A stretch of 64,000 bases of DNA from NCBI GenBank assembly GCA_023476545.1, contig JAMCYP010000014.1, forward strand, positions 2,297-66,296, written 5' to 3'. Origin of the DNA: Candidatus Marsarchaeota archaeon. Its GTDB lineage: Archaea > Micrarchaeota > Micrarchaeia > Micrarchaeales > CABMGC01. The notes under the pieces were generated by a model. That model was not told where the DNA came from, did not search any database, and saw nothing but the letters and a program-made list of their open reading frames with translations. Below, piece after piece: positions 1 through 60,051 of this stretch (position 1 is the stretch's first letter; each line of letters opens with the position of its first letter). The position numbers and the translations under genes were made by a program.

Positions 1-2789
<2,789 letters not shown>

Positions 2790-2793
<4 letters not shown>

Positions 2794-4619
2794 TCCTCCA
2801 TTCCCACCTGCGGCCTTATGTGCAGGCTCTTTATCTCGTCAAGTAGCAGCTTGAACGCGTAGCTTATCTCCACATCGGAGAGCTTGTTGCTTCCGCAGAG
2901 AGGGCAGACCTCCACGCGCTTTGCGAAGTCGTGGTAGCCTATGCTGCCGCACTCCTTGCATATTAGCACCGTTGCCTTGTCGCTCTGGTCGAGCATTCGC
3001 TCCTTGAGCAGCAGGCTCGCTCCGTATGCTACGAGTACGTCTCGTTCCATCTCTCCGAACCTGAGTCCTCCGAGCCTCGCCTTTCCTTCGGTAGGCTGGT
3101 GGGTGAGTATCTGCACAGATCCCCTCGACCTTACCTGCATCTTGTTGCTGACCATGTGGTGCAGTCTGTTGTAGTAGACCACTCCCTGGAAGATCTTTGA
3201 CTTGAAAGGCCTGCCGGTCACGCCGTCATATAGCACCTCCTCGCCGTACTTGTCGAACCCGTGCGCCTCGAGAAGCTTTCCATACTCCTCTATTCTTGTG
3301 GTGCCCTTCTCCGAGAAGGCCGTCCCGTCCATCCTTGTGCCCTTCATGGCACCGGCCTTGGCGCCGAGCGTCTCAAGCAGGTGGCCGAAGGTCATTCTCG
3401 CAGGTATGCTATGAGGGTTGAACATCAGGTCTGGCACCACTCCCTGCTCGGTGAATGGCATGTCCTCGTGAGGAACCACGAGCGCGACCACTCCCTTCTG
3501 CCCGTGCCTGCTTCCGAACTTGTCCCCGGCTTCAGGTACTCTCAGGCTCCTGACCCTTACCTTTACGGTCCTTGTCGCTCCAGGCGACTCGGTGAATATG
3601 ACACCGTCTACGACTCCGTTGTCTCCTGGCTTCAGCGAGACCGAGTCGTCTCTGGTCTTCTCCTCAAGTCCTCCGGCTCCTATGCTCTCTTCCAGGAATC
3701 TAGGCGGTGCGACCTTGCCTATAAGCACGTCGCCCTCGCCGACGTTCATCTCCGGCTCTATTACTCCGTCGTCGCTAAGTTTGGAGTAGGCGTGTTCGCC
3801 GAGATAGCCCTCGGTTGTCGCTGGCGGTACCTTTATCAGGTCCTTCTGCCCTCCAGGATACCTCCTCTCCTCGTCCGAATACATCTTGTAGAACATGCTT
3901 CTTGCCAGGCCCCTATCCACTGCCGCCTTGTTGAGCACAACCGCGTCCTGCATGTTGTAGCCGTAGTAGGTTGAGGTTGCGACCACGAAGTTCTGGCCCG
4001 ATGCGTGCTTGCTCAGCTTCATGCTCTCGTAAGCTGTCGTGGTTATCATCGGAGCCTGCGGATAGAAGAGTATGAATGCCCTGGACTCGAACCTCAGGTT
4101 GAAGTTAGTAGCGTAAAGGCCCTGCGCCTGCTTGATGTAGCTCGCGAACATGAGGTGTCGCGGTGCGCTGTTCATCTCTGGGAATGGGGCTGTGTTGACA
4201 GTCACTCCGAATATCGAGACCGGATCCACCTCCAGGTGCGTGCTCTTCTCTGTTATGTCGGCCTCTGTCATCGCGACCAGCGCGTTCTCCTCCTCTTCAG
4301 CGTCTAGGAACTCGATTATCCCGTTCCTTATCAGGTAGCCGAAGTCCACCTCCTTCTTCTCCATCTTCTCTGCTATCTCCTTGGTCAGCTTTGACTTGCC
4401 GTTCTCGACAAGCACGTACGGCTTCCTTACTCTGCCCCTGTCGGTGTTGATGTGGACCTCGTTCAGCTTCTCCAGGTAGGCGACGTTTATCTCTCCAGAG
4501 AACACGCCCTTGCGCCTGGCTGCCCTTACCTCGCCGACGTAGGCGAACGGGTCGGCCACGTAGCCGATCGCCCTTCCGTTAAGGTGAACATAACATTTCT
4601 CGCTTACCTTCCTTGCCAT
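2790..4619 (-). CDS. rpoB1: DNA-directed RNA polymerase subunit B' (C-terminal half of split B)
   Basis: 609 aa with GDKFGSRHGQKG, RFGEMERD and a C-terminal CKECG...CPLCG zinc ribbon. 4-nt overlap with rpoA1. Confidence 0.97.
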
Positions 4620-12279: not shown

Positions 12280-12354
12280 GGGCTCGTAGCTCAGCTTGGT
12301 TAGAGCGGCGGTCTTATAAGCCGTAGGTCCGGAGTTCAAATCTCCGCGGGCCCA
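12280..12354 (+). tRNA. tRNA-Ile (anticodon UAU)
   Basis: Hand fold: acceptor GGGCTCG/CGGGCCC, D arm GCTC/GAGC, anticodon stem GCGGT/GCCGT, loop CTTATAA, T arm CGGAG-TTCAAAT-CTCCG, discriminator A. Confidence 0.9.
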
Positions 12355-12363
12355 CTGTAGGGA

Positions 12364-46141: not shown

Positions 46142-47014
46142 TCAGTACACCAGATTCAGCAGCTCCTCTTCCGACTCTACTGTCTTCATGTCGTTCTTGC
46201 CCACAATAGGCACCCCCATCACCTTCCCCTTCTTCTTGCTGCTGATGAAAAACGGATAGTTGTTCTGGAATGTATCCCTTATGGCATTGAAGAGCTCTGC
46301 TCGTTTTACCAGCGTCCGAAAGTTTGCATCAAGGCTTATCTCGAAGTAGTTGCGGTCCTTGGCCACTATGTCAAAAGGAGGATGCATGAGCCGCAAAGCC
46401 CGCAGCCCTGTATTTTCGAGCAGACCTGCCTTTGGCTGCTCTTTTGAATTGTTGCCCGCGCTCTCATCGGCGCGTACTGTTCCGAGCACGCGCTCCAGTC
46501 GGGAAACTGTCGCAATAGAGGCGTAGTCTGTCTCCTTTTCGTGCTTGTATAGCGTAGAGCTTGAAACAGAGACGCGGCGTGCCAGTTCTGTTACAGACAT
46601 CCCGGACATCTTACGCAGCGCATGCAGCCTGCTGCCTTCTATCTTTACTTTTATGCCAACTGATTTTGATGCAACCAGGGTCCTGTCTCCTGAAGCCACC
46701 TCGGCAAGCATCTCTGGAGAGATGCATCTTATCGAGAATCGATAGTAGCTTACCCCGCGCTCCAGCTTGCTCTTCTTTGATGCTTCCCCGACAACCAAAG
46801 GCTCTGCGCCCATGAACTGAGAAAGCCTGGAAAGCGCAACGGCCTCCTTCTTGGTTATGGAATCGATGTTGCGCACTGCCTTGATTATGAACTTGCCTCC
46901 AGGTCCCTCGGCAAACAGGTCCACGAAGGTATGCATGTTGCTGGCCAGTACAGTGGCGAAGCCGCTCGATGATAGCTCGCGCTCGGCGTCCTTCGCTATG
47001 CGGTCCCTTTTCAT
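46142..47014 (-). CDS. conserved archaeal HTH (XRE-type) transcriptional regulator, COG1395-like
   Basis: 290 aa with a central HTH (LRKMSGMSVTELARRVSVSSSTLYKHEKE) and the family's characteristic N-terminal FDL...IKAVRNIDS...LVVG region. Confidence 0.8.
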   Translation of the reverse strand: MKRDRIAKDAERELSSSGFATVLASNMHTFVDLFAEGPGGKFIIKAVRNIDSITKKEAVALSRLSQFMGAEPLVVGEASKKSKLERGVSYYRFSIRCISPEMLAEVASGDRTLVASKSVGIKVKIEGSRLHALRKMSGMSVTELARRVSVSSSTLYKHEKETDYASIATVSRLERVLGTVRADESAGNNSKEQPKAGLLENTGLRALRLMHPPFDIVAKDRNYFEISLDANFRTLVKRAELFNAIRDTFQNNYPFFISSKKKGKVMGVPIVGKNDMKTVESEEELLNLVY

Positions 47015-47029
47015 AACAACACATTGCTG

Positions 47030-47743
47030 CTAAAGGCTTTTATCATGTGTTGACGGTGCTGCTGGCGTCAGGCTCTGGAAAAGAAAAGCGTGATTGGTCT
47101 CAGTGTAGAACCTGTTGAAAGGAACGAATCCGGCATCGTGCATCATTCCGATAATCTCTATAGGAGAGTAGTACCTGTAAAAGGTCTGGTAGCTGCGGCC
47201 CTCTCCAAGCCACACTCCATCCCTGCACTCCCTGCCTTGTGCGCGGAGTTTTGCATAACGGTCATCATCTCTGAGCCAGAACACAAGCGCGAACTTCCCA
47301 TCGCGAAGTTTGTCGTGGAGGAGCCCCATAACCGAGGCGCGTTCGCTCTCGTACGGCATCGTCGCTATAACGTTCACCAGCATCGCTAGGTCATATCGCC
47401 GTTCATCGTCTTTGAACTGCGCTGGCGTAAGCCTCCTGAAAGCACCATCGTGGCGTTGGCAGAGGGCATAGTTGCTGCGCGTTACGGGGTTGGAATCAAG
47501 GCGGTCGAACTCTACCGCGCAGAGCGTCTTGCCCATAGTGAGCACAAAGGGATCGTTCTTCAGCTTTCCAGCTCCGAAATCAACGACGTCGTTTATATCG
47601 AGAGCTCTGTTGGTGAGGACATCACGGAGAACCGTTCTGATCCCTCTGCCCATGTGCGACGCTGCTGATTTAGTTACGTCAATCTCTATCTCCTTCCGAT
47701 GGCCGTGATCCATAACGGTAAGATTATACAGAGGGCCTGACAA
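47030..47743 (-). CDS. class I SAM-dependent methyltransferase, substrate unknown
   Basis: 237 aa with motif I VVDFGAGKL, post-I CAVEF, and later LVNVI. Confidence 0.7.
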   Translation of the reverse strand: MSGPLYNLTVMDHGHRKEIEIDVTKSAASHMGRGIRTVLRDVLTNRALDINDVVDFGAGKLKNDPFVLTMGKTLCAVEFDRLDSNPVTRSNYALCQRHDGAFRRLTPAQFKDDERRYDLAMLVNVIATMPYESERASVMGLLHDKLRDGKFALVFWLRDDDRYAKLRAQGRECRDGVWLGEGRSYQTFYRYYSPIEIIGMMHDAGFVPFNRFYTETNHAFLFQSLTPAAPSTHDKSL

Positions 47744-47758
47744 AGTGATGCACCATGC

Positions 47759-48118
47759 CTATTCAATGTGGTTGGGCAGGTCAGCGAGTTTCTTGTCAAG
47801 CTTGCCCCTGGCTATCATCTCCTCTGTGTGTATCGCTCCGGCGATGTTCCACATGGCCTGAGCCAGGTGATCCTCATCGCGCTTTCCTTCTATGTGCTGG
47901 TTGATATGCCGAAGAGCAGAGTCAAGAAACCGCGATACCGGCATACCCTTCTCCCAATTTCTTTCACCGTACTTCTGCGCTCCTTTTTCATATATTATCG
48001 CCAGCCTGCGGAGGGCAGTGTTGGGTATAAGATCATACCTTCCTTTCCCATCGCGCGAATCACGATGGGCCCCCGAAACAAAAACCTGCTTCTTCCCAGA
48101 ATCTTTCAGATCAGACAC
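47759..48118 (-). CDS. DUF5664 / dATP-dGTP diphosphohydrolase N-terminal-domain protein (all-alpha NTP pyrophosphohydrolase, phage-associated family)
   Basis: 119 aa; SGAHRDSRDGKGRYDLIPNTALRRLAIIYEKGAQKYGERNWEKGMPVSRFLDSALRHI...EDHLAQAMWN matches the family pattern DSGK.r.dLip..al..la.v...Ga.KYg..NW..G. Confidence 0.7.
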   Translation of the reverse strand: MSDLKDSGKKQVFVSGAHRDSRDGKGRYDLIPNTALRRLAIIYEKGAQKYGERNWEKGMPVSRFLDSALRHINQHIEGKRDEDHLAQAMWNIAGAIHTEEMIARGKLDKKLADLPNHIE

Positions 48119-48180
48119 AACAACCCCTAATAAGAGAAGAGAGTTTGAAATATAAACGCGACGGGATTTTGTGTTGAGTT

Positions 48181-48255
48181 TGCTCCCACCGGGATTTGAA
48201 CCCGGGTTACAGGGTTGAAAGCCCTATGTCCTTGGCCGGACTAGACGATGGGAGC
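48181..48255 (-). tRNA. tRNA-Glu (anticodon UUC)
   Basis: Hand fold of the reverse complement: acceptor GCTCCCA/TGGGAGC, anticodon stem TAGGG/CCCTG, loop CTTTCAA, T arm CCGGG-TTCAAAT-CCCGG, discriminator A. Confidence 0.9.
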
Positions 48256-48288: not shown

Positions 48289-48939
48289 TTACCTTCTCGC
48301 AAGAAACTTGTCGACTATGTCGGCGACTTCCCTGCTCGTCTCGGCCACGTCCTGCTCCCCGTTCACCATCCTGAATCTGAACCTCTTGGCGAGATTAAGG
48401 TACGCCTTCCTCACCTTTCCCAGCGTCTCCCTCTTCTCGAAGAGCTCGCGCTTCTCCCTCCCGCTGCCTATCCTGGACATTGAGATGTCTGGGCTTATGT
48501 CTATGAATATGGTCAGGTCGGGCATCCGGAACTCCCGGTTAACGTTGAAGAGCCAGTGCGTGTCCACCCCTGCCGCGAAACCGTACGCGAGCGTGGAGAA
48601 CATGTACCTGTCGCAGATCACTATCCTGTCCTTGTCCAGCGCGGGCTCTATCTCATCCTCCAGGTGCCTCGCCCTGTCGGCGCAGAACAGCAGCTGCAGT
48701 GACTTGAACGATGTGTTCCAGTTCTCCTTGAGCGCGGCGCGTATCATGCCGCCTATCAGCCCAGTGGTGGGCTCCTTGGTAAGAAGCGTCTTGTAGCCCT
48801 GCTGCCTCAGGCGTGTTTCTAGATACGTCGCCTGGGTGGATATGCCAGACCCGTCCAATCCTTCGAGAACGATGAATGCTCCGCGCTTCACAGTATCCCC
48901 GATACTGTTGAAGACTTCGGAAAACAGTTTAATAAACAT
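48289..48939 (-). CDS. thymidylate kinase-like protein with Walker-A Lys replaced by Ile
   Basis: 216 aa with FIVLEGLDGSGISTQ (canonical EGxDGxGK[ST]T), CDRYMFS and a lid region. The Ile codon ATA lies at 48843..48841. Confidence 0.85.
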   Translation of the reverse strand: MFIKLFSEVFNSIGDTVKRGAFIVLEGLDGSGISTQATYLETRLRQQGYKTLLTKEPTTGLIGGMIRAALKENWNTSFKSLQLLFCADRARHLEDEIEPALDKDRIVICDRYMFSTLAYGFAAGVDTHWLFNVNREFRMPDLTIFIDISPDISMSRIGSGREKRELFEKRETLGKVRKAYLNLAKRFRFRMVNGEQDVAETSREVADIVDKFLARR

Positions 48940-49067
48940 GCATAGGAGATTCGTTTATATCGGTTGTTTTACGCGCAGAAAAAAAGTCAACAGCAAGCAG
49001 TAAAAACATCAACCATCAACTATTCTGGATTCTTCGAGGTGTTTTTATCGGGGGGCTTCTGATTGCT

Positions 49068-49691
49068 ATGGAGGGGGCGGACGGCGTAGGCAAACACACC
49101 CAGGTGACAATGCTTGAGAGCGGCCTCAGGGAAGAGGGACACAGCGTGAAGCTTCACGGCTTCCCCAACTACTCCTCGGTGTTTGGACGCGTGATAAGGG
49201 ACCGCCTGACTGGAAGCGTAAAGATGAGCAACAAGGGGTCGTTCTTGATGTACCTTGGAGACATGGTGGAAGACGCACCGATGATCGAAAAGTGGCTGGA
49301 TGAGGGCCACACGGTGCTAGTGGACAGGTACAACCTAAGCACAATAGCCTATGGGGTGGCAAACGGATTCGACTATGATGATGCCAAGAAGGTTGAGGAG
49401 ACGTTCAACCTCCCGCGCCCGAACCTTGTCATCTACATAGACATGCCTGTGGAAAGGTCGATGCTGCTGAAGGCGAGACAGCGGTCCCTGGAGCAAGACA
49501 AGGCTGACATATACGAGTCAAACAGGAAATTGCAGGAGAACGTCAAGCCGGTGTATGAGAGAATGTTTTCGGAGAGCCTTTTTGCAGACAAATGGGTGAA
49601 GATTGACGGTAGCGGATCGATCGAGGAGGTGCATAAATCCATAATGAACGCCGTTAACTCCATGTTCACAATCAACAAGCTCAGGTACTGA
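49068..49691 (+). CDS. tmk: thymidylate kinase (start codon uncertain)
   Basis: 207 aa, M-EGADGVGKHTQ, VDRYNLS. The in-frame upstream codons read ...RGVFIGGLLIA with no ATG/GTG/TTG. Confidence 0.85.
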   Translation: MEGADGVGKHTQVTMLESGLREEGHSVKLHGFPNYSSVFGRVIRDRLTGSVKMSNKGSFLMYLGDMVEDAPMIEKWLDEGHTVLVDRYNLSTIAYGVANGFDYDDAKKVEETFNLPRPNLVIYIDMPVERSMLLKARQRSLEQDKADIYESNRKLQENVKPVYERMFSESLFADKWVKIDGSGSIEEVHKSIMNAVNSMFTINKLRY

Positions 49692-49699
49692 CCCAAAGG

Positions 49700-50185
49700 T
49701 CACTGGTCGGGATACTCCTCAACCTTGTCCTCCATATACACTATCGGTATCTTCGCCTGCCTGAAGAACTCGCGTGTCAGCTTCGCAGCGTGGTACTTCT
49801 TCTGGCAGACCACGCGCGTCGCGCCGGCGTTTATCAGCATCTTCGTGCACGTGAAGCACGGCTCGAACTTCACGTAGAGCGTGGATCCCTCGACCGAGAT
49901 GCCATGCAGCGCGGCCTGCAGTATTGCATTCTGCTCCGCGTGTATCGTCCTTATGCAGTGCTTCGAGATCGTGCCGTCGGGATTGACCTCGTCGCTCATG
50001 AGGTGGCCAACCTCGTCGCAGTGCGGCATGCCCCTCGGGGAGCCCACGTAGCCGGTGGTGAGTATCCTCTTGTCCTTCACCAGCACGGCGCCGTTCCTGC
50101 CCCTGTCGCAGGTGCCCCTCGTTCCTACCACGTGCGCGATGTTTAGGAAGTACTCGTCCCACGAAGGTCTCTTGTACTCTGCCAT
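49700..50185 (-). CDS. dCMP deaminase
   Basis: 161 aa with HAEQNAILQA and PCFTCTKMLINAG zinc motifs. Confidence 0.92.
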   Translation of the reverse strand: MAEYKRPSWDEYFLNIAHVVGTRGTCDRGRNGAVLVKDKRILTTGYVGSPRGMPHCDEVGHLMSDEVNPDGTISKHCIRTIHAEQNAILQAALHGISVEGSTLYVKFEPCFTCTKMLINAGATRVVCQKKYHAAKLTREFFRQAKIPIVYMEDKVEEYPDQ

Positions 50186-50846: not shown

Positions 50847-53771
50847 GTGTTTGGAGTGATTAGAAAGGTCGTAGCCAGGCAGAAGGAAGCGGTGGAGGCG
50901 GGCATAGCGCAGACACTGGATACTTTCTATGAGGTTGAGAACGGGGCAGCTTCCACTACGTCAGTCACAAAGGAAGATGCTCATGAGAGACCAAAAAGCG
51001 TGTTGTTGGACTCTGGGACAGGAACCGGCAAAACCACACAGATGATTGCAGGGCTTGTAGATCTGCTGAAGGAAGGCGAAAAGACAAATGGGAAGATGGG
51101 CGCCAGGCCCGAAGACATATTGTTCATAACATGGTCCAGGGAAGCCAACGAGGAGGTCAGGGAGAGGCTGACCAAAGTGCTTGCTGAAGAAGGGGCGCCA
51201 AAGGTCAGGGAGTCGGACATCGAGATACGCACTCTGCGCAGCTATACTTCTGGCTTGATGCGCGAGCAGGCGGGGGAGACGATAGCGGAGATAAGCGACA
51301 GCAGGGCAGGAGTAATAATACTAGAGGGGCTGCGCGCCAACAACCCGCAGAGATACAGCGACGAGTACCTGCGCGTCATGGCCAAGGACATGAAGCGCAC
51401 CATAGACTTCATAAAGGGGTTCGGCCTGTCGTCGACCGAGGTCGACATGAAGCTGGTGGGCGAGGAGATAGAGAGGGTATGCAAGGAGAAAGAATTCAAC
51501 GAGACGAGAACCTCGAAGAACATGCAGTACTTCGACATGTTCATGAAGGTCTTCGACCACTACGAGAAATCCCTGGAGGACGCAAGCCTTCTTGACCAGA
51601 ACGACATACTCATGTTGCTGAAGGAGAGGATGGACAAGGGAGAGAGCCCGTACAAGAGATACAAGTACGTGTTTGTTGACGGAATACAGGACATGAATGT
51701 GCTCGAGTCCCAGGTAATTGCCAAGTCTGGAGAGAGTCAGATGCTCGTGAGGGACGACAAGAAGGCCATATTCGGATTCAGGGGCGGAGGTGTCGAGAAC
51801 GCGTGGAGCTTCAGCGATGTGGATTCGGTAATAAGAGGGGGAGCCGGAAACGTCAACAAGCGGAATCTGAAGGAACTGTCTGATTATGCCAAGGACTTCT
51901 TTCTGGCGAATGTCACTGACAGGAAGGCTTATGAGAAGGACTTTGAGGGCGCGGTGAATGCCAGAACCGAGAGGAAGGGGGTGGTGCAGCTCGTAACAGT
52001 GGAAGACGGGGTAAACGACCAGGTGGAAGCTGCAGCCGCGATTATTGCAGACCTTGTAAAGAAGGGAGAGAAGGTTGGGGTGCTGGGCCGCAGCAACTAC
52101 CAGCTGGAGGTCATGGAGAAGAAGCTTGACTCGCTTGGCATACACTACATGTCAAAGAGGCACGGCGGCGCTAAGGACGCCAAGAACGACATAATAGACT
52201 ACCTAAAGGGAATGCTGTACAACGAGCCGGAGATAGTCATAAAGGCGCTCTTCACCCCGTTTGCCCAGGTAAGCTGGGCAGATGCATCAGACGCGGTAGA
52301 GAAGTACAGGACGGGAAAGATAACCTGGATAGAGCTGCAGAGAAGAGTGCCGAGCTTCTTCGCAAACAAGGCAACGTTCACGAGGAGCAAGATAGAAGAG
52401 CTATTCGGAAGCGTTGTCATCCCCATAGCAGTTGGCCAGGGCGAGGACTATCACAAGGCGGCTCTCGCGATACAGAGGAGCCTGCTTGACTATACCGGCA
52501 CGCGCACTGAGATAGACAGAACCTCTCTGTTCGACCATCTTGAGATGAGCACCGAGAGGTCCGAGCCTGCAGGCAAGGGGAATGGAGTACTCCTGGCAAC
52601 TGTGCACGGCGCAAAGAGCAAGTGGTTTGACACGGTGGTCTACCTGCCTTCGTACTTCAGGGGCACGCTGGACTACCCGGACATAACCAAGTACGCGATA
52701 ATGAAGGCCACAGCAGGGATAGACACGATAGCTGCTTCGCAGGACGAGCCGCTCAAGGTGGACTTCGTTGCCATAACCAGAGCCAGGAATGAGCTCTATA
52801 TCATTTCGAGCAAGAAGCAGCACCCGTGGTTCAACATACCTGGAAAGATAGTGTTGGCGGAGCCCAGGCGCGTGCCACAGAATGCAGAGGCGCAGGCGAC
52901 GGAAACACCAGAGTTGAAGAGCAGCGCGAGGGGGCTCAAGAGCGAGGGCCAGCGGATAAAGGAATCTTTCTTCGACCACTTCGCTCAGAGCGGGTCCGTG
53001 TCCTTTACGCAGGTGGAGACTTCAAGCAACCCGTTCAGGTACGTATTCAACTACATATACAAATCAAGGGAGCAGACCACCCCGATGAAGGTAGGGGCAC
53101 AGGTCCACGAGATAGCCGAGAGATTCTTCAGGAAGACTCTGTCAGAGGGCTCGCTCAACGAGACGGAGAAGAGGTTCCTGGACAACATAAAGGAGGTGTA
53201 CTCCCTGGTCACCGAGACATACGGGGTACGGCAGACAGATGCCGAGTATAATGTAGAGCTTGACATAAACGAGGTGTTTGAGGAATTCCCTCCGGGAACA
53301 CGATTCAAGGGGAAGATAGACGCAGTATACGAGAAGGCCACTCCGGAAGGCACGAAGTACATACTGCTCGACTACAAGACGGACAAGGATGGGACGTGGT
53401 TCGGAGGGCACGAGAAGCAGGTGGCGCTGTACAAGAGAGCGTTCGCGATCAAGAAGAAGGTAAGAGAGGAGGACATAGATGTAATAGTCGCGTTTATAGG
53501 AAGGAGCCAGGGAGGCCAGAGCTTCGGCATGAAGATGCACTCTTCGATACCCGCGAGGGGATTCGAACTGATGACCGAGAAGAGGCTTGCGGAGCGCCTA
53601 GAGGCGATAAAAGAGGATACGAAGACGTTCCTGGATTACAGAAATGACCCGAACAAGTTCATAGACGCGCTGCTCCACGCAGACCCACAGAACGCCAGGG
53701 AGAAGAGGCTACGCGAGGCCCTGCTGGCAGATAATGACATAGCGGCCAGGTCTGTAGCCAGGATAGAGTAG
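50847..53771 (+). CDS. UvrD/Rep-family SF1 helicase fused to a C-terminal PD-(D/E)XK (RecB-like) nuclease
   Basis: 974 aa. Helicase motifs: DSGTGTGKTT, FVDGIQD, IFGFRGGG, TVHGAKSKWFDTV, VAITRARNELYI. C-terminal nuclease: QVHEIAERFF, GKIDAVYE, ILLDYKT. GTG start. Confidence 0.85.
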   Translation: MFGVIRKVVARQKEAVEAGIAQTLDTFYEVENGAASTTSVTKEDAHERPKSVLLDSGTGTGKTTQMIAGLVDLLKEGEKTNGKMGARPEDILFITWSREANEEVRERLTKVLAEEGAPKVRESDIEIRTLRSYTSGLMREQAGETIAEISDSRAGVIILEGLRANNPQRYSDEYLRVMAKDMKRTIDFIKGFGLSSTEVDMKLVGEEIERVCKEKEFNETRTSKNMQYFDMFMKVFDHYEKSLEDASLLDQNDILMLLKERMDKGESPYKRYKYVFVDGIQDMNVLESQVIAKSGESQMLVRDDKKAIFGFRGGGVENAWSFSDVDSVIRGGAGNVNKRNLKELSDYAKDFFLANVTDRKAYEKDFEGAVNARTERKGVVQLVTVEDGVNDQVEAAAAIIADLVKKGEKVGVLGRSNYQLEVMEKKLDSLGIHYMSKRHGGAKDAKNDIIDYLKGMLYNEPEIVIKALFTPFAQVSWADASDAVEKYRTGKITWIELQRRVPSFFANKATFTRSKIEELFGSVVIPIAVGQGEDYHKAALAIQRSLLDYTGTRTEIDRTSLFDHLEMSTERSEPAGKGNGVLLATVHGAKSKWFDTVVYLPSYFRGTLDYPDITKYAIMKATAGIDTIAASQDEPLKVDFVAITRARNELYIISSKKQHPWFNIPGKIVLAEPRRVPQNAEAQATETPELKSSARGLKSEGQRIKESFFDHFAQSGSVSFTQVETSSNPFRYVFNYIYKSREQTTPMKVGAQVHEIAERFFRKTLSEGSLNETEKRFLDNIKEVYSLVTETYGVRQTDAEYNVELDINEVFEEFPPGTRFKGKIDAVYEKATPEGTKYILLDYKTDKDGTWFGGHEKQVALYKRAFAIKKKVREEDIDVIVAFIGRSQGGQSFGMKMHSSIPARGFELMTEKRLAERLEAIKEDTKTFLDYRNDPNKFIDALLHADPQNAREKRLREALLADNDIAARSVARIE

Positions 53772-59112: not shown

Positions 59113-60051
59113 GTGACAACCAAAAGTTTCGATGCAAAAGAAGCAATGATGTCCCGCGTGAAGAATCTTGAGGCGGACGCGCAAATCGGGATGGTAAGAA
59201 AGGTGCTCGACCACGGGGCTGTGATGCTTGTGGACTACATGGGTGGAGACGAGTCCATAGTGAGAGCAGCGAGGGTGTCATACGGAGCGGGAACAAAGAC
59301 TTTGCAGGAAGACAAGGCGCTCATAAAATACCTCCTGCGACACTCTCACACAACTCCGTTCGAGATGGTGGAGACGACCTTCTACCTGAAGATGCCGATT
59401 TTCGTAATGAGGCAGATTGTCAGGCACAGGACCGCGAACATGAACGAGATGTCGCTGAGGTACTCGATTGAGCTCGATGTTCATTACGTGCCGGAGCTTG
59501 ACGCCATACAGGGGCAGTCCTCATCGAACAAACAGGGCAGGGAGGAGAAAGGCTGGACGAAGGAGGCAAAGGAGGGGATACAGACCGAGATGCGGGACCA
59601 TGCGGAGGCGAGCTATGCCCTTTATCAGAAACTGATCCAGCAGGGTGTAGCCAGGGAGATCGCAAGATTTGTTCTGCCCGTTACATTCTACACCGAATGC
59701 TACTGGAAGATGGACCTCTGGAATATGCTCCACTTCCTCGCGCTCAGAATGGACGCACATGCGCAGTTCGAGACCAGAGAGTTCGCTAATGCTATGGCTG
59801 AAGTAGTCAAGAAAGTGGTACCTGTCGCTTTCGAAGCCTTCGAAGAGTACATAAAAGACGGGATGAGGCTCTCTAAAAAAGAAGAGACTGCAGTTGCGAC
59901 CCTGCTGAGAGGGGCTACGCAGGAAGATGCCTGCTCCGCAGCCGGGCTGACGCTATATAAGCCAGATGGGACACCGCTGATCACAGGGGAGGGGCCTGAA
60001 TTCCTGCAAAAGCTGGCGGCTATTAGGGAAAAGGAGGCAAGGAGAGGCTAG
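59113..60051 (+). CDS. thyX: flavin-dependent thymidylate synthase ThyX
   Basis: RHSHTTPFEM...RQIVRHRTANMNEMSLRYS (the RHR...SxR ThyX signature). GTG 59113 or ATG 59146. Confidence 0.93.
   Translation: MTTKSFDAKEAMMSRVKNLEADAQIGMVRKVLDHGAVMLVDYMGGDESIVRAARVSYGAGTKTLQEDKALIKYLLRHSHTTPFEMVETTFYLKMPIFVMRQIVRHRTANMNEMSLRYSIELDVHYVPELDAIQGQSSSNKQGREEKGWTKEAKEGIQTEMRDHAEASYALYQKLIQQGVAREIARFVLPVTFYTECYWKMDLWNMLHFLALRMDAHAQFETREFANAMAEVVKKVVPVAFEAFEEYIKDGMRLSKKEETAVATLLRGATQEDACSAAGLTLYKPDGTPLITGEGPEFLQKLAAIREKEARRG

Follow-up and report, generated by a model that had tools for sequence, protein, structure and literature searches.

Do three closely packed genes beside a tRNA gene work as one module in a reduced archaeal genome, or are they neighbours with separate histories? 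We addressed this question for a 64,000-nucleotide stretch of contig JAMCYP010000014.1 (the window, in which all coordinates are given unless a comparison locus is named), which comes from an archaeon of Micrarchaeota type (DPANN) with a compact chromosome. Its source metagenome-assembled genome (MAG) is labelled 'Candidatus Marsarchaeota' by NCBI, and the MAGs nearest to it that keep its gene order bear the label Candidatus Micrarchaeota; L and P numbers denote comparison loci and proteins from relatives. The three genes lie on the minus strand. The first is a 119-amino-acid (aa) open reading frame (ORF) with a GTG start (47759..48118), here called PPase for its predicted pyrophosphohydrolase activity; the second is a 237-aa methyltransferase ORF with a TTG start (47030..47743), here called MTase; and the third is a 290-aa ORF with an ATG start (46142..47014), here called COG1395 after its family. 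An initial annotation had described this row with spacers of 15 nucleotides (nt) each (47744..47758 and 47015..47029) and with a tRNA-Glu gene 62 nt upstream of PPase, and the ORF coordinates and ARAGORN agreed with that layout. It had also proposed that the set is a module for sanitising or modifying the nucleotide pool.

The reading that we favour, with a probability of about 0.55, is that a domesticated deoxynucleoside triphosphate (dNTP) pyrophosphatase, serving pool sanitation and possibly the supply of deoxyuridine monophosphate (dUMP), shares a bicistron with an orphan methyltransferase, and that COG1395 is a separate unit. Two things are new at the locus: PPase as a cellular member of a phage enzyme family that was characterised recently, and MTase as an orphan from a methyltransferase family not yet described.

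Gene content between tRNA-Glu and COG1395

Nine distinct syntenic Micrarchaeota-type genomes, the window included, were compared. They share a conserved block that reads PRC-barrel gene, a site with dCMP deaminase, Dcd or nothing, Tmk2, Tmk1, tRNA-Glu, a variable slot, COG1395, an A24 peptidase gene, a winged helix-turn-helix (wHTH) gene and BCAT. The tRNA-Glu gene (anticodon UUC; 48181..48255, minus strand) is the conserved upstream border of the slot, and its position was kept in L001, L002, L007, L009 and L011. We found PPase together with MTase in five of the nine genomes, namely the window, L001/L008, L002/L003/L010 (where an alpha/beta hydrolase gene is added), L007 and L006 (where PPase is in two frames). 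Two genomes, L009 and L011, carry PPase followed by a 66-aa DUF2795-like ORF, with MTase missing from the site, and another two carry MTase without PPase (the P0009 contig, which has a GHMP kinase gene instead, and L094). The gap between PPase and COG1395 in L009 and L011 held no MTase remnant; in the L009 genome an MTase was located ~70 kb away on the same contig (L004), adjoining SecY. The 66-aa ORF at the MTase position (MGIPKSVEEH...; L009 5459..5659 and its equivalent in L011) matched DUF2795 below threshold, at 22 bits against 25.

PPase, MTase and COG1395 are thus gained and lost independently in the clade, and for this reason we regard the three genes as neighbours and not as a demonstrated machine. 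The data do not support the proposal that the three genes form a single module for nucleotide modification or sanitising: PPase and MTase come and go separately, and COG1395 has a promoter-like element of its own, described below. Conservation of the PPase-MTase pairing was limited to the five syntenic genomes. None of 75 other genome loci with PPase homologues had this MTase within 5 kb, and none of 79 other MTase-family loci had a PPase within 4 kb.

Where the two genes do occur together, the spacers between them measure -1 to 16 nt in the five genomes. Such spacing leaves no room for a promoter, and PPase and MTase are therefore probably a bicistron. A putative promoter of their common transcript is the TATA-like box TTTATATT (48149..48156, minus strand), 30 nt upstream of the PPase GTG. 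AT-rich boxes resembling it were present in L002, L007 and L011 and absent in L001 and L009; in the latter two the PPase start lies ~22 nt after the tRNA.

PPase belongs to a phage enzyme family

The 119-aa protein is a clear member of PF18909 (DUF5664), and its sequence predicts a dNTP pyrophosphohydrolase that would convert a dNTP to the monophosphate (dNMP) and pyrophosphate (PPi). It matched PF18909 (dGTP_diPhyd_N) at 80.2 bits, compared with a Pfam gathering cutoff of 27, and residues 17-99 aligned to profile positions 3-90 of 99. The PHROG matches were phrog_18716 (110 bits) and phrog_801, 'dATP/dGTP pyrophosphohydrolase' (74 bits). These scores, together with the phage structure matches given below, bear out the earlier assignment to DUF5664 with mainly phage relatives; NCBI already labels the protein 'DUF5664 domain-containing protein'. 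The motif GKGRYDLIP...YEKGAQKYGERNWEKG is present in the translation, and a 33-sequence alignment that includes the window protein revealed that the family-invariant residues R19, D20, K25, G26, N54, R70, H71, R80, E82, D83, H84 and N91 are all kept.

An AlphaFold (AF2) model of PPase, with a predicted local distance difference test score (pLDDT) of 87.5, consists of an N-terminal beta-hairpin and then three long helices. When it was compared with predicted phage PF18909 structures (BFVD), template modelling (TM) scores reached 0.85, and the comparison with the characterised dATP/dGTP diphosphohydrolase of Acinetobacter phage SH-Ab 15497 gave a TMq of 0.64 (E 2.8e-3). Among PDB sequences, phmmer and the 33-sequence PPase profile gave no MazG-like match at E <= 10. 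The top two fold matches in the PDB were S-2L MazZ (7ODY) and AF_0060 (2P06), at a non-significant E of 1.8-1.9 and TM of 0.35-0.5. These MazG-like NTP pyrophosphatases are similar to PPase in helical architecture and in attributed chemistry (NTP to NMP and PPi), whereas the N-terminal beta-hairpin region, which is conserved in PPase, has no MazG counterpart, and these searches do not place PPase in the MazG-like superfamily. PPase also lies outside a Z-genome (PurZ) system, its neighbours being Tmk and dCMP deaminase and not PurZ, DatZ or DpoZ.

In Arthrobacter phage Wayne, a stand-alone DUF5664 enzyme produces dNMPs from dATP, dUTP and dGTP, its turnover number (kcat) on dATP being 0.48 s-1, and the DUF5664-DUF550 fusion of phage SH-Ab 15497 hydrolyses dATP and dGTP (PMC12884076). 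PPase has in common with these enzymes the Pfam family, the beta-hairpin with three long helices and the invariant charged residues. In its stand-alone size it equals the Wayne enzyme, whereas in SH-Ab 15497 DUF5664 is the N-terminal domain of the fusion.

The PPase family is large, and its conservation is unusually high: a homologue search gave 1,520 matches, many of them at 60-70% identity, with bacteria and other DPANN archaea among the sources; homologues from cultured phages were at most 48% identical. Outside the clade, the two homologues most similar to PPase (72% and 69% identity) were found in tightly packed, unidirectional virus-like arrays (L173 and L174). In these arrays dCMP deaminase lies one to four genes from the PPase homologue, and NDT, HAD_PNKP, UDG, ADP-ribosylglycohydrolase, PTH2 and a C5 DNA methylase are encoded as well. 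L173 and L174 also encode YqeY, NUDIX and a class I release factor, and both could be large genomes of phages or viruses with many translation-related genes. At the 75 other loci the genes flanking PPase homologues included DUF5906 primase-helicase (10), NT5C (5), nucleoside deoxyribosyltransferases (5 and 4) and RNase T (3), and further ribonucleotide reductases, Dam, VapE and a small terminase, neighbours usual for phage modules of replication and nucleotide metabolism.

The archaeal gene differs from the phage DUF5664 enzymes in that it is carried by a cellular chromosome, where it is vertically inherited and under strong purifying selection. Identity among the sister genomes was 85-92% for PPase, compared with 69-84% for Tmk1, 49-68% for COG1395 and 48-66% for MTase. 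The nonsynonymous divergence (dN) of PPase was ~0.065 and the synonymous divergence (dS) was saturated, so that dN/dS values are upper bounds only. PPase was retained in seven of the nine genomes. In one of these, L006, the homologue (2272..2627) appears as two tblastn segments in different frames, called as a 61-aa gene; either a frameshift has turned it into a pseudogene or the assembly is at fault. The place of the Tmk genes, just upstream, is taken in L006 by HepT/MNT toxin-antitoxin genes.

GC content was ~0.50-0.56 over the region, with no composition shift. We found no second copy of the tRNA-Glu 3' end in the window (that is, no att-like repeat), no meaningful direct repeats in the att search and no integrase among the neighbourhood genes. 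An integrated mobile element at the tRNA gene was rejected on these grounds. Based on the high identity, the low dN, the uniform GC content and the lack of att repeats and integrase, we read PPase as a viral gene captured long ago that would now serve a selected host function.

MTase is a methyltransferase without a curated family

NCBI's deposited MTase has 227 aa and begins at the ATG at 47713. The sequence encoded 5' of this ATG includes a GPLYxL N-terminus that is conserved in MTase homologues, and a GGTG Shine-Dalgarno-like motif precedes the TTG at 47743. The TTG start, and with it the 15-nt spacer, is therefore the better call. As modelled, the resulting 237-aa protein is a stand-alone class I S-adenosylmethionine (SAM)-dependent methyltransferase without a curated family. 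Its AF2 model (pLDDT 85.6; predicted TM score, pTM, 0.85) has a Rossmann-type class I fold after an N-terminal beta-hairpin. Foldseek against the PDB returned more than 1000 methyltransferase matches at E <= 1e-3 (best 6.9e-12), and fold and search together uphold the class I call made from sequence. The matches were only generic small-molecule and tRNA methyltransferases (TM 0.55-0.62), and Trm9, METTL6 and CmoM matched the structure no better than small-molecule methyltransferases did.

The VVDFGAGKL motif is present in the translation. In the family alignment the motif I residues F56, G57, A58, G59 and K60 are invariant, as is the end of beta-2 (A76, V77, E78 and F79, with the acidic E78), and after beta-4 the protein reads LVNVIATMP, in which N124, V125 and P130 are conserved (family NVxxxMP). 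A known DNA methyltransferase of the N6A/N4C or C5 type was rejected: no DPPY-type motif, (D/N/S)PP(Y/F/W), and no PC-type motif occurs in the MTase sequence or alignment, and 237 aa leaves no room for a target-recognition domain. The best Pfam match, Methyltransf_23, stayed below threshold (19 bits; cutoff 27), and we found no NCBIfam family at E <= 0.1, no PADLOC model and no PHROG match. The absence of a curated NCBIfam match also ruled against a known rRNA/tRNA methyltransferase. The initial annotation had named, as grounds against its proposal, that MTase is such an enzyme and that its pairing with PPase is not conserved; of these, only the second applies.

There were 10 close MTase homologues among 5.8e9 (5.8 billion) clusters, and an exhaustive profile search with MTase yielded 578 relatives. 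Many of the strong relatives are ~470 aa long and consist of an N-terminal MTase module followed by a PD-(D/E)XK-like domain (RIDLV...ECKNY) at the C-terminus, and this fused nuclease matches the C-terminal region of the PADLOC candidate PDC-M36A. About 50 of the 149 best representatives (P0132-P0279) extend at the C-terminus by 150 aa or more, and in the members examined the added part was PD-(D/E)XK-like. The clusters of fused proteins were all metagenomic entries, nine of ten being singletons. Other relatives are fused to TIR domains or to a trypsin-like protease. Domain E-values of the MTase-effector fusions against the family profile ranged from ~1e-74 (best) to ~1e-30. On Bacillus plasmids the C-terminal nuclease domain of the ~470-aa relatives is found fused to Dcm, amid AAA, Gabija-like and McrC genes. 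Furthermore, stand-alone MTase forms in five metagenomic loci are directly preceded by a HerA-type (DUF87) ATPase, and one MTase-TIR fusion is followed by an AEP-TOTE/DEAD helicase (MTase-family loci of note are L090-L092, L138, L147, L150, L159 and L162). The family is mostly basic, with isoelectric points (pI) of 7.8-9.5. Among IMG/VR viral contigs no MTase relative was found.

Effector swapping of this kind around an MTase module is typical of anti-phage defence systems, and no PADLOC model covers the module. The family looks like a rare group of conflict-system methyltransferases, and the window MTase looks like an effector-less member. It has the whole module in common with the single-chain MTase-effector proteins, including the beta-hairpin and the DFGAGK, AVEF and NVxxxMP motifs; unlike them, it has neither an effector domain nor a HerA neighbour and lies amid housekeeping genes. 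From the partners and the charge of the family we infer that MTase is an orphan whose substrate is probably of the nucleic-acid type, rather than a free nucleotide.

COG1395 has its own promoter-like element

NCBIfam NF003162 (PRK04140) aligned residues 1-289 of the COG1395 protein to profile positions 1-309 of 317 (E 4e-46), and Pfam HTH_31 and HTH_3 passed their thresholds at a central Xre-type helix-turn-helix (HTH). This full-length alignment and the HTH support an assignment of the third gene to the COG1395 type. At 157 bits the match falls short of the equivalog cutoff (263), which points to a divergent DPANN version of the protein. PF26553 (PDDEXK_19) is on record for its orthologues. 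By these matches we assign the protein to the COG1395/PAB2104 family, with a predicted PD-(D/E)XK-like domain, the Xre HTH and a degenerate PD-(D/E)XK-like domain; the family, which is restricted to archaea, has the same architecture. PAB2104 proteins have been described as a PD-(D/E)XK domain, an HTH and an inactivated PD-(D/E)XK domain, present archaea-wide and free of horizontal transfer, with a function that is not known (PMC1189080, PMC3424549).

A putative promoter of the BRE/TATA type (BRE, B recognition element), GATAAAAGCCTTT, was located at 47032..47044 on the minus strand, where it overlaps the last codons and the stop of MTase. It is near-invariant 19-20 nt upstream of the COG1395 ATG in eight of eight loci (window, L001, L002, L006, L007, L009, L011 and L094), and it is kept whether MTase or the DUF2795 ORF precedes COG1395. 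Because the element overlaps the MTase stop, the short spacer between MTase and COG1395 is explained without co-transcription. The pattern suggests that the promoter of COG1395 is strongly conserved, that the transcript of the gene is leaderless or nearly so, and that COG1395 is likely its own transcription unit.

One further gene of the window may bear on COG1395. ARAGORN called a tRNA-Ile with the anticodon TAT (UAU) at 12280..12355 on the plus strand, instead of the usual archaeal CAU-agmatidine tRNA-Ile2. The combination of DUF1743 and tRNA_anti is the domain pair of the agmatidine synthetase TiaS. COG1395 is reported to co-occur with a DUF1743 and tRNA_anti protein (PMC3424549), and for this reason the tRNA-Ile(UAU) may be relevant to it.

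Proposed roles of the genes

We propose that the variable slot and its border hold two transcription units. The first would be the PPase-MTase bicistron, in which MTase is co-expressed with PPase and functionally separable from it. The second would be COG1395, transcribed from its own promoter-like element and a neighbour of the first unit, not its dedicated regulator. PPase, viral in ancestry, would by homology hydrolyse dNTPs to dNMP and PPi, and its position and the analogy with phage enzymes suggest that it may keep the dNTP pool clean. It could plausibly also turn dUTP into dUMP and so feed ThyX and Tmk, since PPase lies beside Dcd or dCMP deaminase, two Tmk genes and ThyX, and since dCMP deaminase recurs near the virus-like relatives. 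The case for dUMP supply is weak, because synteny within a single clade may simply be inherited and because relatives that bear Dcd keep PPase.

The T4-type pyrimidine dNTP pathway combines the dCTPase/dUTPase gp56 with dCMP deaminase, thymidylate synthase and a dNMP kinase. The gene set of the window is analogous in that the genes for an NTP pyrophosphatase, dCMP deaminase, ThyX and Tmk lie near one another. Unlike the T4-type pathway, it contains no hydroxymethylase or other base-modifying enzyme, and dCTP is not a substrate of the characterised DUF5664 enzyme (PMC12884076).

Several observations weigh against the reading of a domesticated pyrophosphatase beside an orphan methyltransferase. 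The link of PPase to the thymidylate genes is positional and was seen only in one closely related clade, and the 75 other PPase loci had no Tmk and no dCMP deaminase within 5 kb. PPase is retained in Dcd-bearing relatives as well, which argues that the enzyme is not a simple dUTPase substitute. Characterised PF18909 enzymes share 20-40% identity with the window PPase, so that its substrate range may differ from theirs. On the side of MTase, the top structural matches are small-molecule methyltransferases, and the tight spacing to PPase in five genomes is equally expected of a functional pair.

If the favoured reading is true, a phage nucleotide-pool enzyme (DUF5664) has been captured by a reduced-genome archaeon and, in a clear example of such capture, kept beside its thymidylate genes by strong selection, which would bear on how salvage-dependent DPANN archaea keep their dNTP pools clean and balanced. 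Fusions to nuclease, TIR or protease effectors and HerA partners, as in the MTase family, are the mark of a conflict system not yet described. This unnamed family is the better lead of the two, may matter more than PPase and may merit a separate study.

Alternative explanations

The alternative that survives best, although we consider it unlikely, holds that PPase and MTase are both accessory cargo of a tRNA-adjacent hot spot, that is, of a defence or viral-remnant islet, and that PPase acts in virus-host conflict, for example by dNTP depletion. The variable content of the slot (alpha/beta hydrolase, GHMP kinase, DUF2795, with the HepT/MNT toxin-antitoxin genes nearby) would suit such an islet, as would a PPase family that is mostly phage- or prophage-borne and an MTase family that occurs in conflict-system architectures. 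What sets PPase apart from cargo is its conservation: at 85-92% identity and a dN of ~0.065, it ranks with the most conserved proteins in the block, and seven of nine genomes keep it, including the two-frame copy of L006. The region moreover shows no composition shift, integrase or att repeat, and no PADLOC model matches PPase.

Somewhat less probable is a pathway in which PPase makes a dNMP, MTase methylates it and Tmk2 phosphorylates it again, either as a pre-replicative route to a modified base or as a dedicated sanitising circuit. Phage nucleotide-modification pathways use comparable enzyme sets, and the co-directional, closely spaced PPase and MTase genes, with two Tmk paralogues, dCMP deaminase and ThyX nearby, could be read in this way. 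The comparison of genomes speaks otherwise, since PPase stands at the site without MTase in L009 and L011, MTase stands without PPase in the P0009 contig and L094, and Tmk2 is present with or without MTase. The two families also did not meet at any of the 75 other PPase loci or the 79 other MTase-family loci. Furthermore, the partners of MTase relatives are nuclease and TIR domains and HerA, not nucleotide enzymes, and MTase was not found in viral contigs (IMG/VR) or PHROGs.

Just as improbable is a restriction-modification-like or defence pair of MTase and COG1395, in which MTase would mark self nucleic acid and the PD-(D/E)XK-HTH protein would be the nuclease or controller. MTase adjoins COG1395 in seven of the ten close-clade MTase loci with known flanks, but this adjacency is explained by MTase sitting in a variable slot that borders a fixed gene, and COG1395 stays at the site without MTase in L009 and L011. 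COG1395 has been predicted to be a Type IIE-like nuclease (PMC1189080), and more distant MTase relatives carry a fused PD-(D/E)XK domain. When this fused domain was compared with COG1395 by hhalign, no specific similarity was revealed; the Rosetta-stone idea that it equals the N-terminal domain of COG1395 was rejected at a probability of 0.3%. The distributions differ as well, COG1395 being archaea-wide and vertically inherited (PMC3424549) and the MTase clade having ~10 members, and MTase has neither DPPY/PC motifs nor a target-recognition domain.

Least probable of all, by a small step, is a working pair in which MTase acts on the deoxynucleotide released by PPase, or on DNA in concert with it, and Tmk2 returns the product to the dNTP pool. 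For the five genomes with no more than 16 nt between the two genes, such a pair would, if real, mean that a DPANN archaeon makes a methylated base at the nucleotide level by a route derived from viruses.

Thymidylate genes and other neighbours

The initial annotation had placed the three genes near two Tmk paralogues and dCMP deaminase, with ThyX at a greater distance, and Pfam matches confirmed this thymidylate-gene context. Tmk1, a canonical dTMP kinase (48289..48939, minus strand), scored 166.6 bits with PF02223 and 169.8 bits with TIGR00041 and was syntenic in all relatives. Tmk2 is a divergent paralogue (49068..49691, plus strand; PF02223 97.8 bits), with 38-55% identity among relatives. 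Its beta-1 strand, GGLLIAMEG (GLLVVIEG in homologues), is encoded in frame 5' of the listed ATG (48940..49100), and the real start probably lies upstream of that ATG. No ATG, GTG or TTG is available in frame within 48940..49100 to start Tmk2 ahead of this strand; translation may begin at a non-canonical codon (ATT or ATC), or the gene may be without its first strand.

The dCMP deaminase gene (49700..50185, minus strand; PF00383 81.9 bits) occupies the site between the PRC-barrel gene and Tmk2, as it does in L011 (2939..3415). In L007 the site holds a Dcd (dCTP deaminase) of the DCD/dUTPase family (3512..4063), and in L001, L002 and L009 it is empty. dCMP deaminase and dCTP deaminase appear to be alternative dUMP producers that swap at one chromosomal site. 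ThyX, a flavin-dependent thymidylate synthase (59113..60051, plus strand; PF02511 186.6 bits), lies 11 kb away.

In several relatives, genes of 945-1126 aa with no Pfam match on record adjoin the PRC-barrel gene. The window itself encodes, at 50847..53771 on the plus strand, a 974-aa UvrD-type helicase with a C-terminal PD-(D/E)XK (PDDEXK_1) nuclease domain, an AddA-like architecture.

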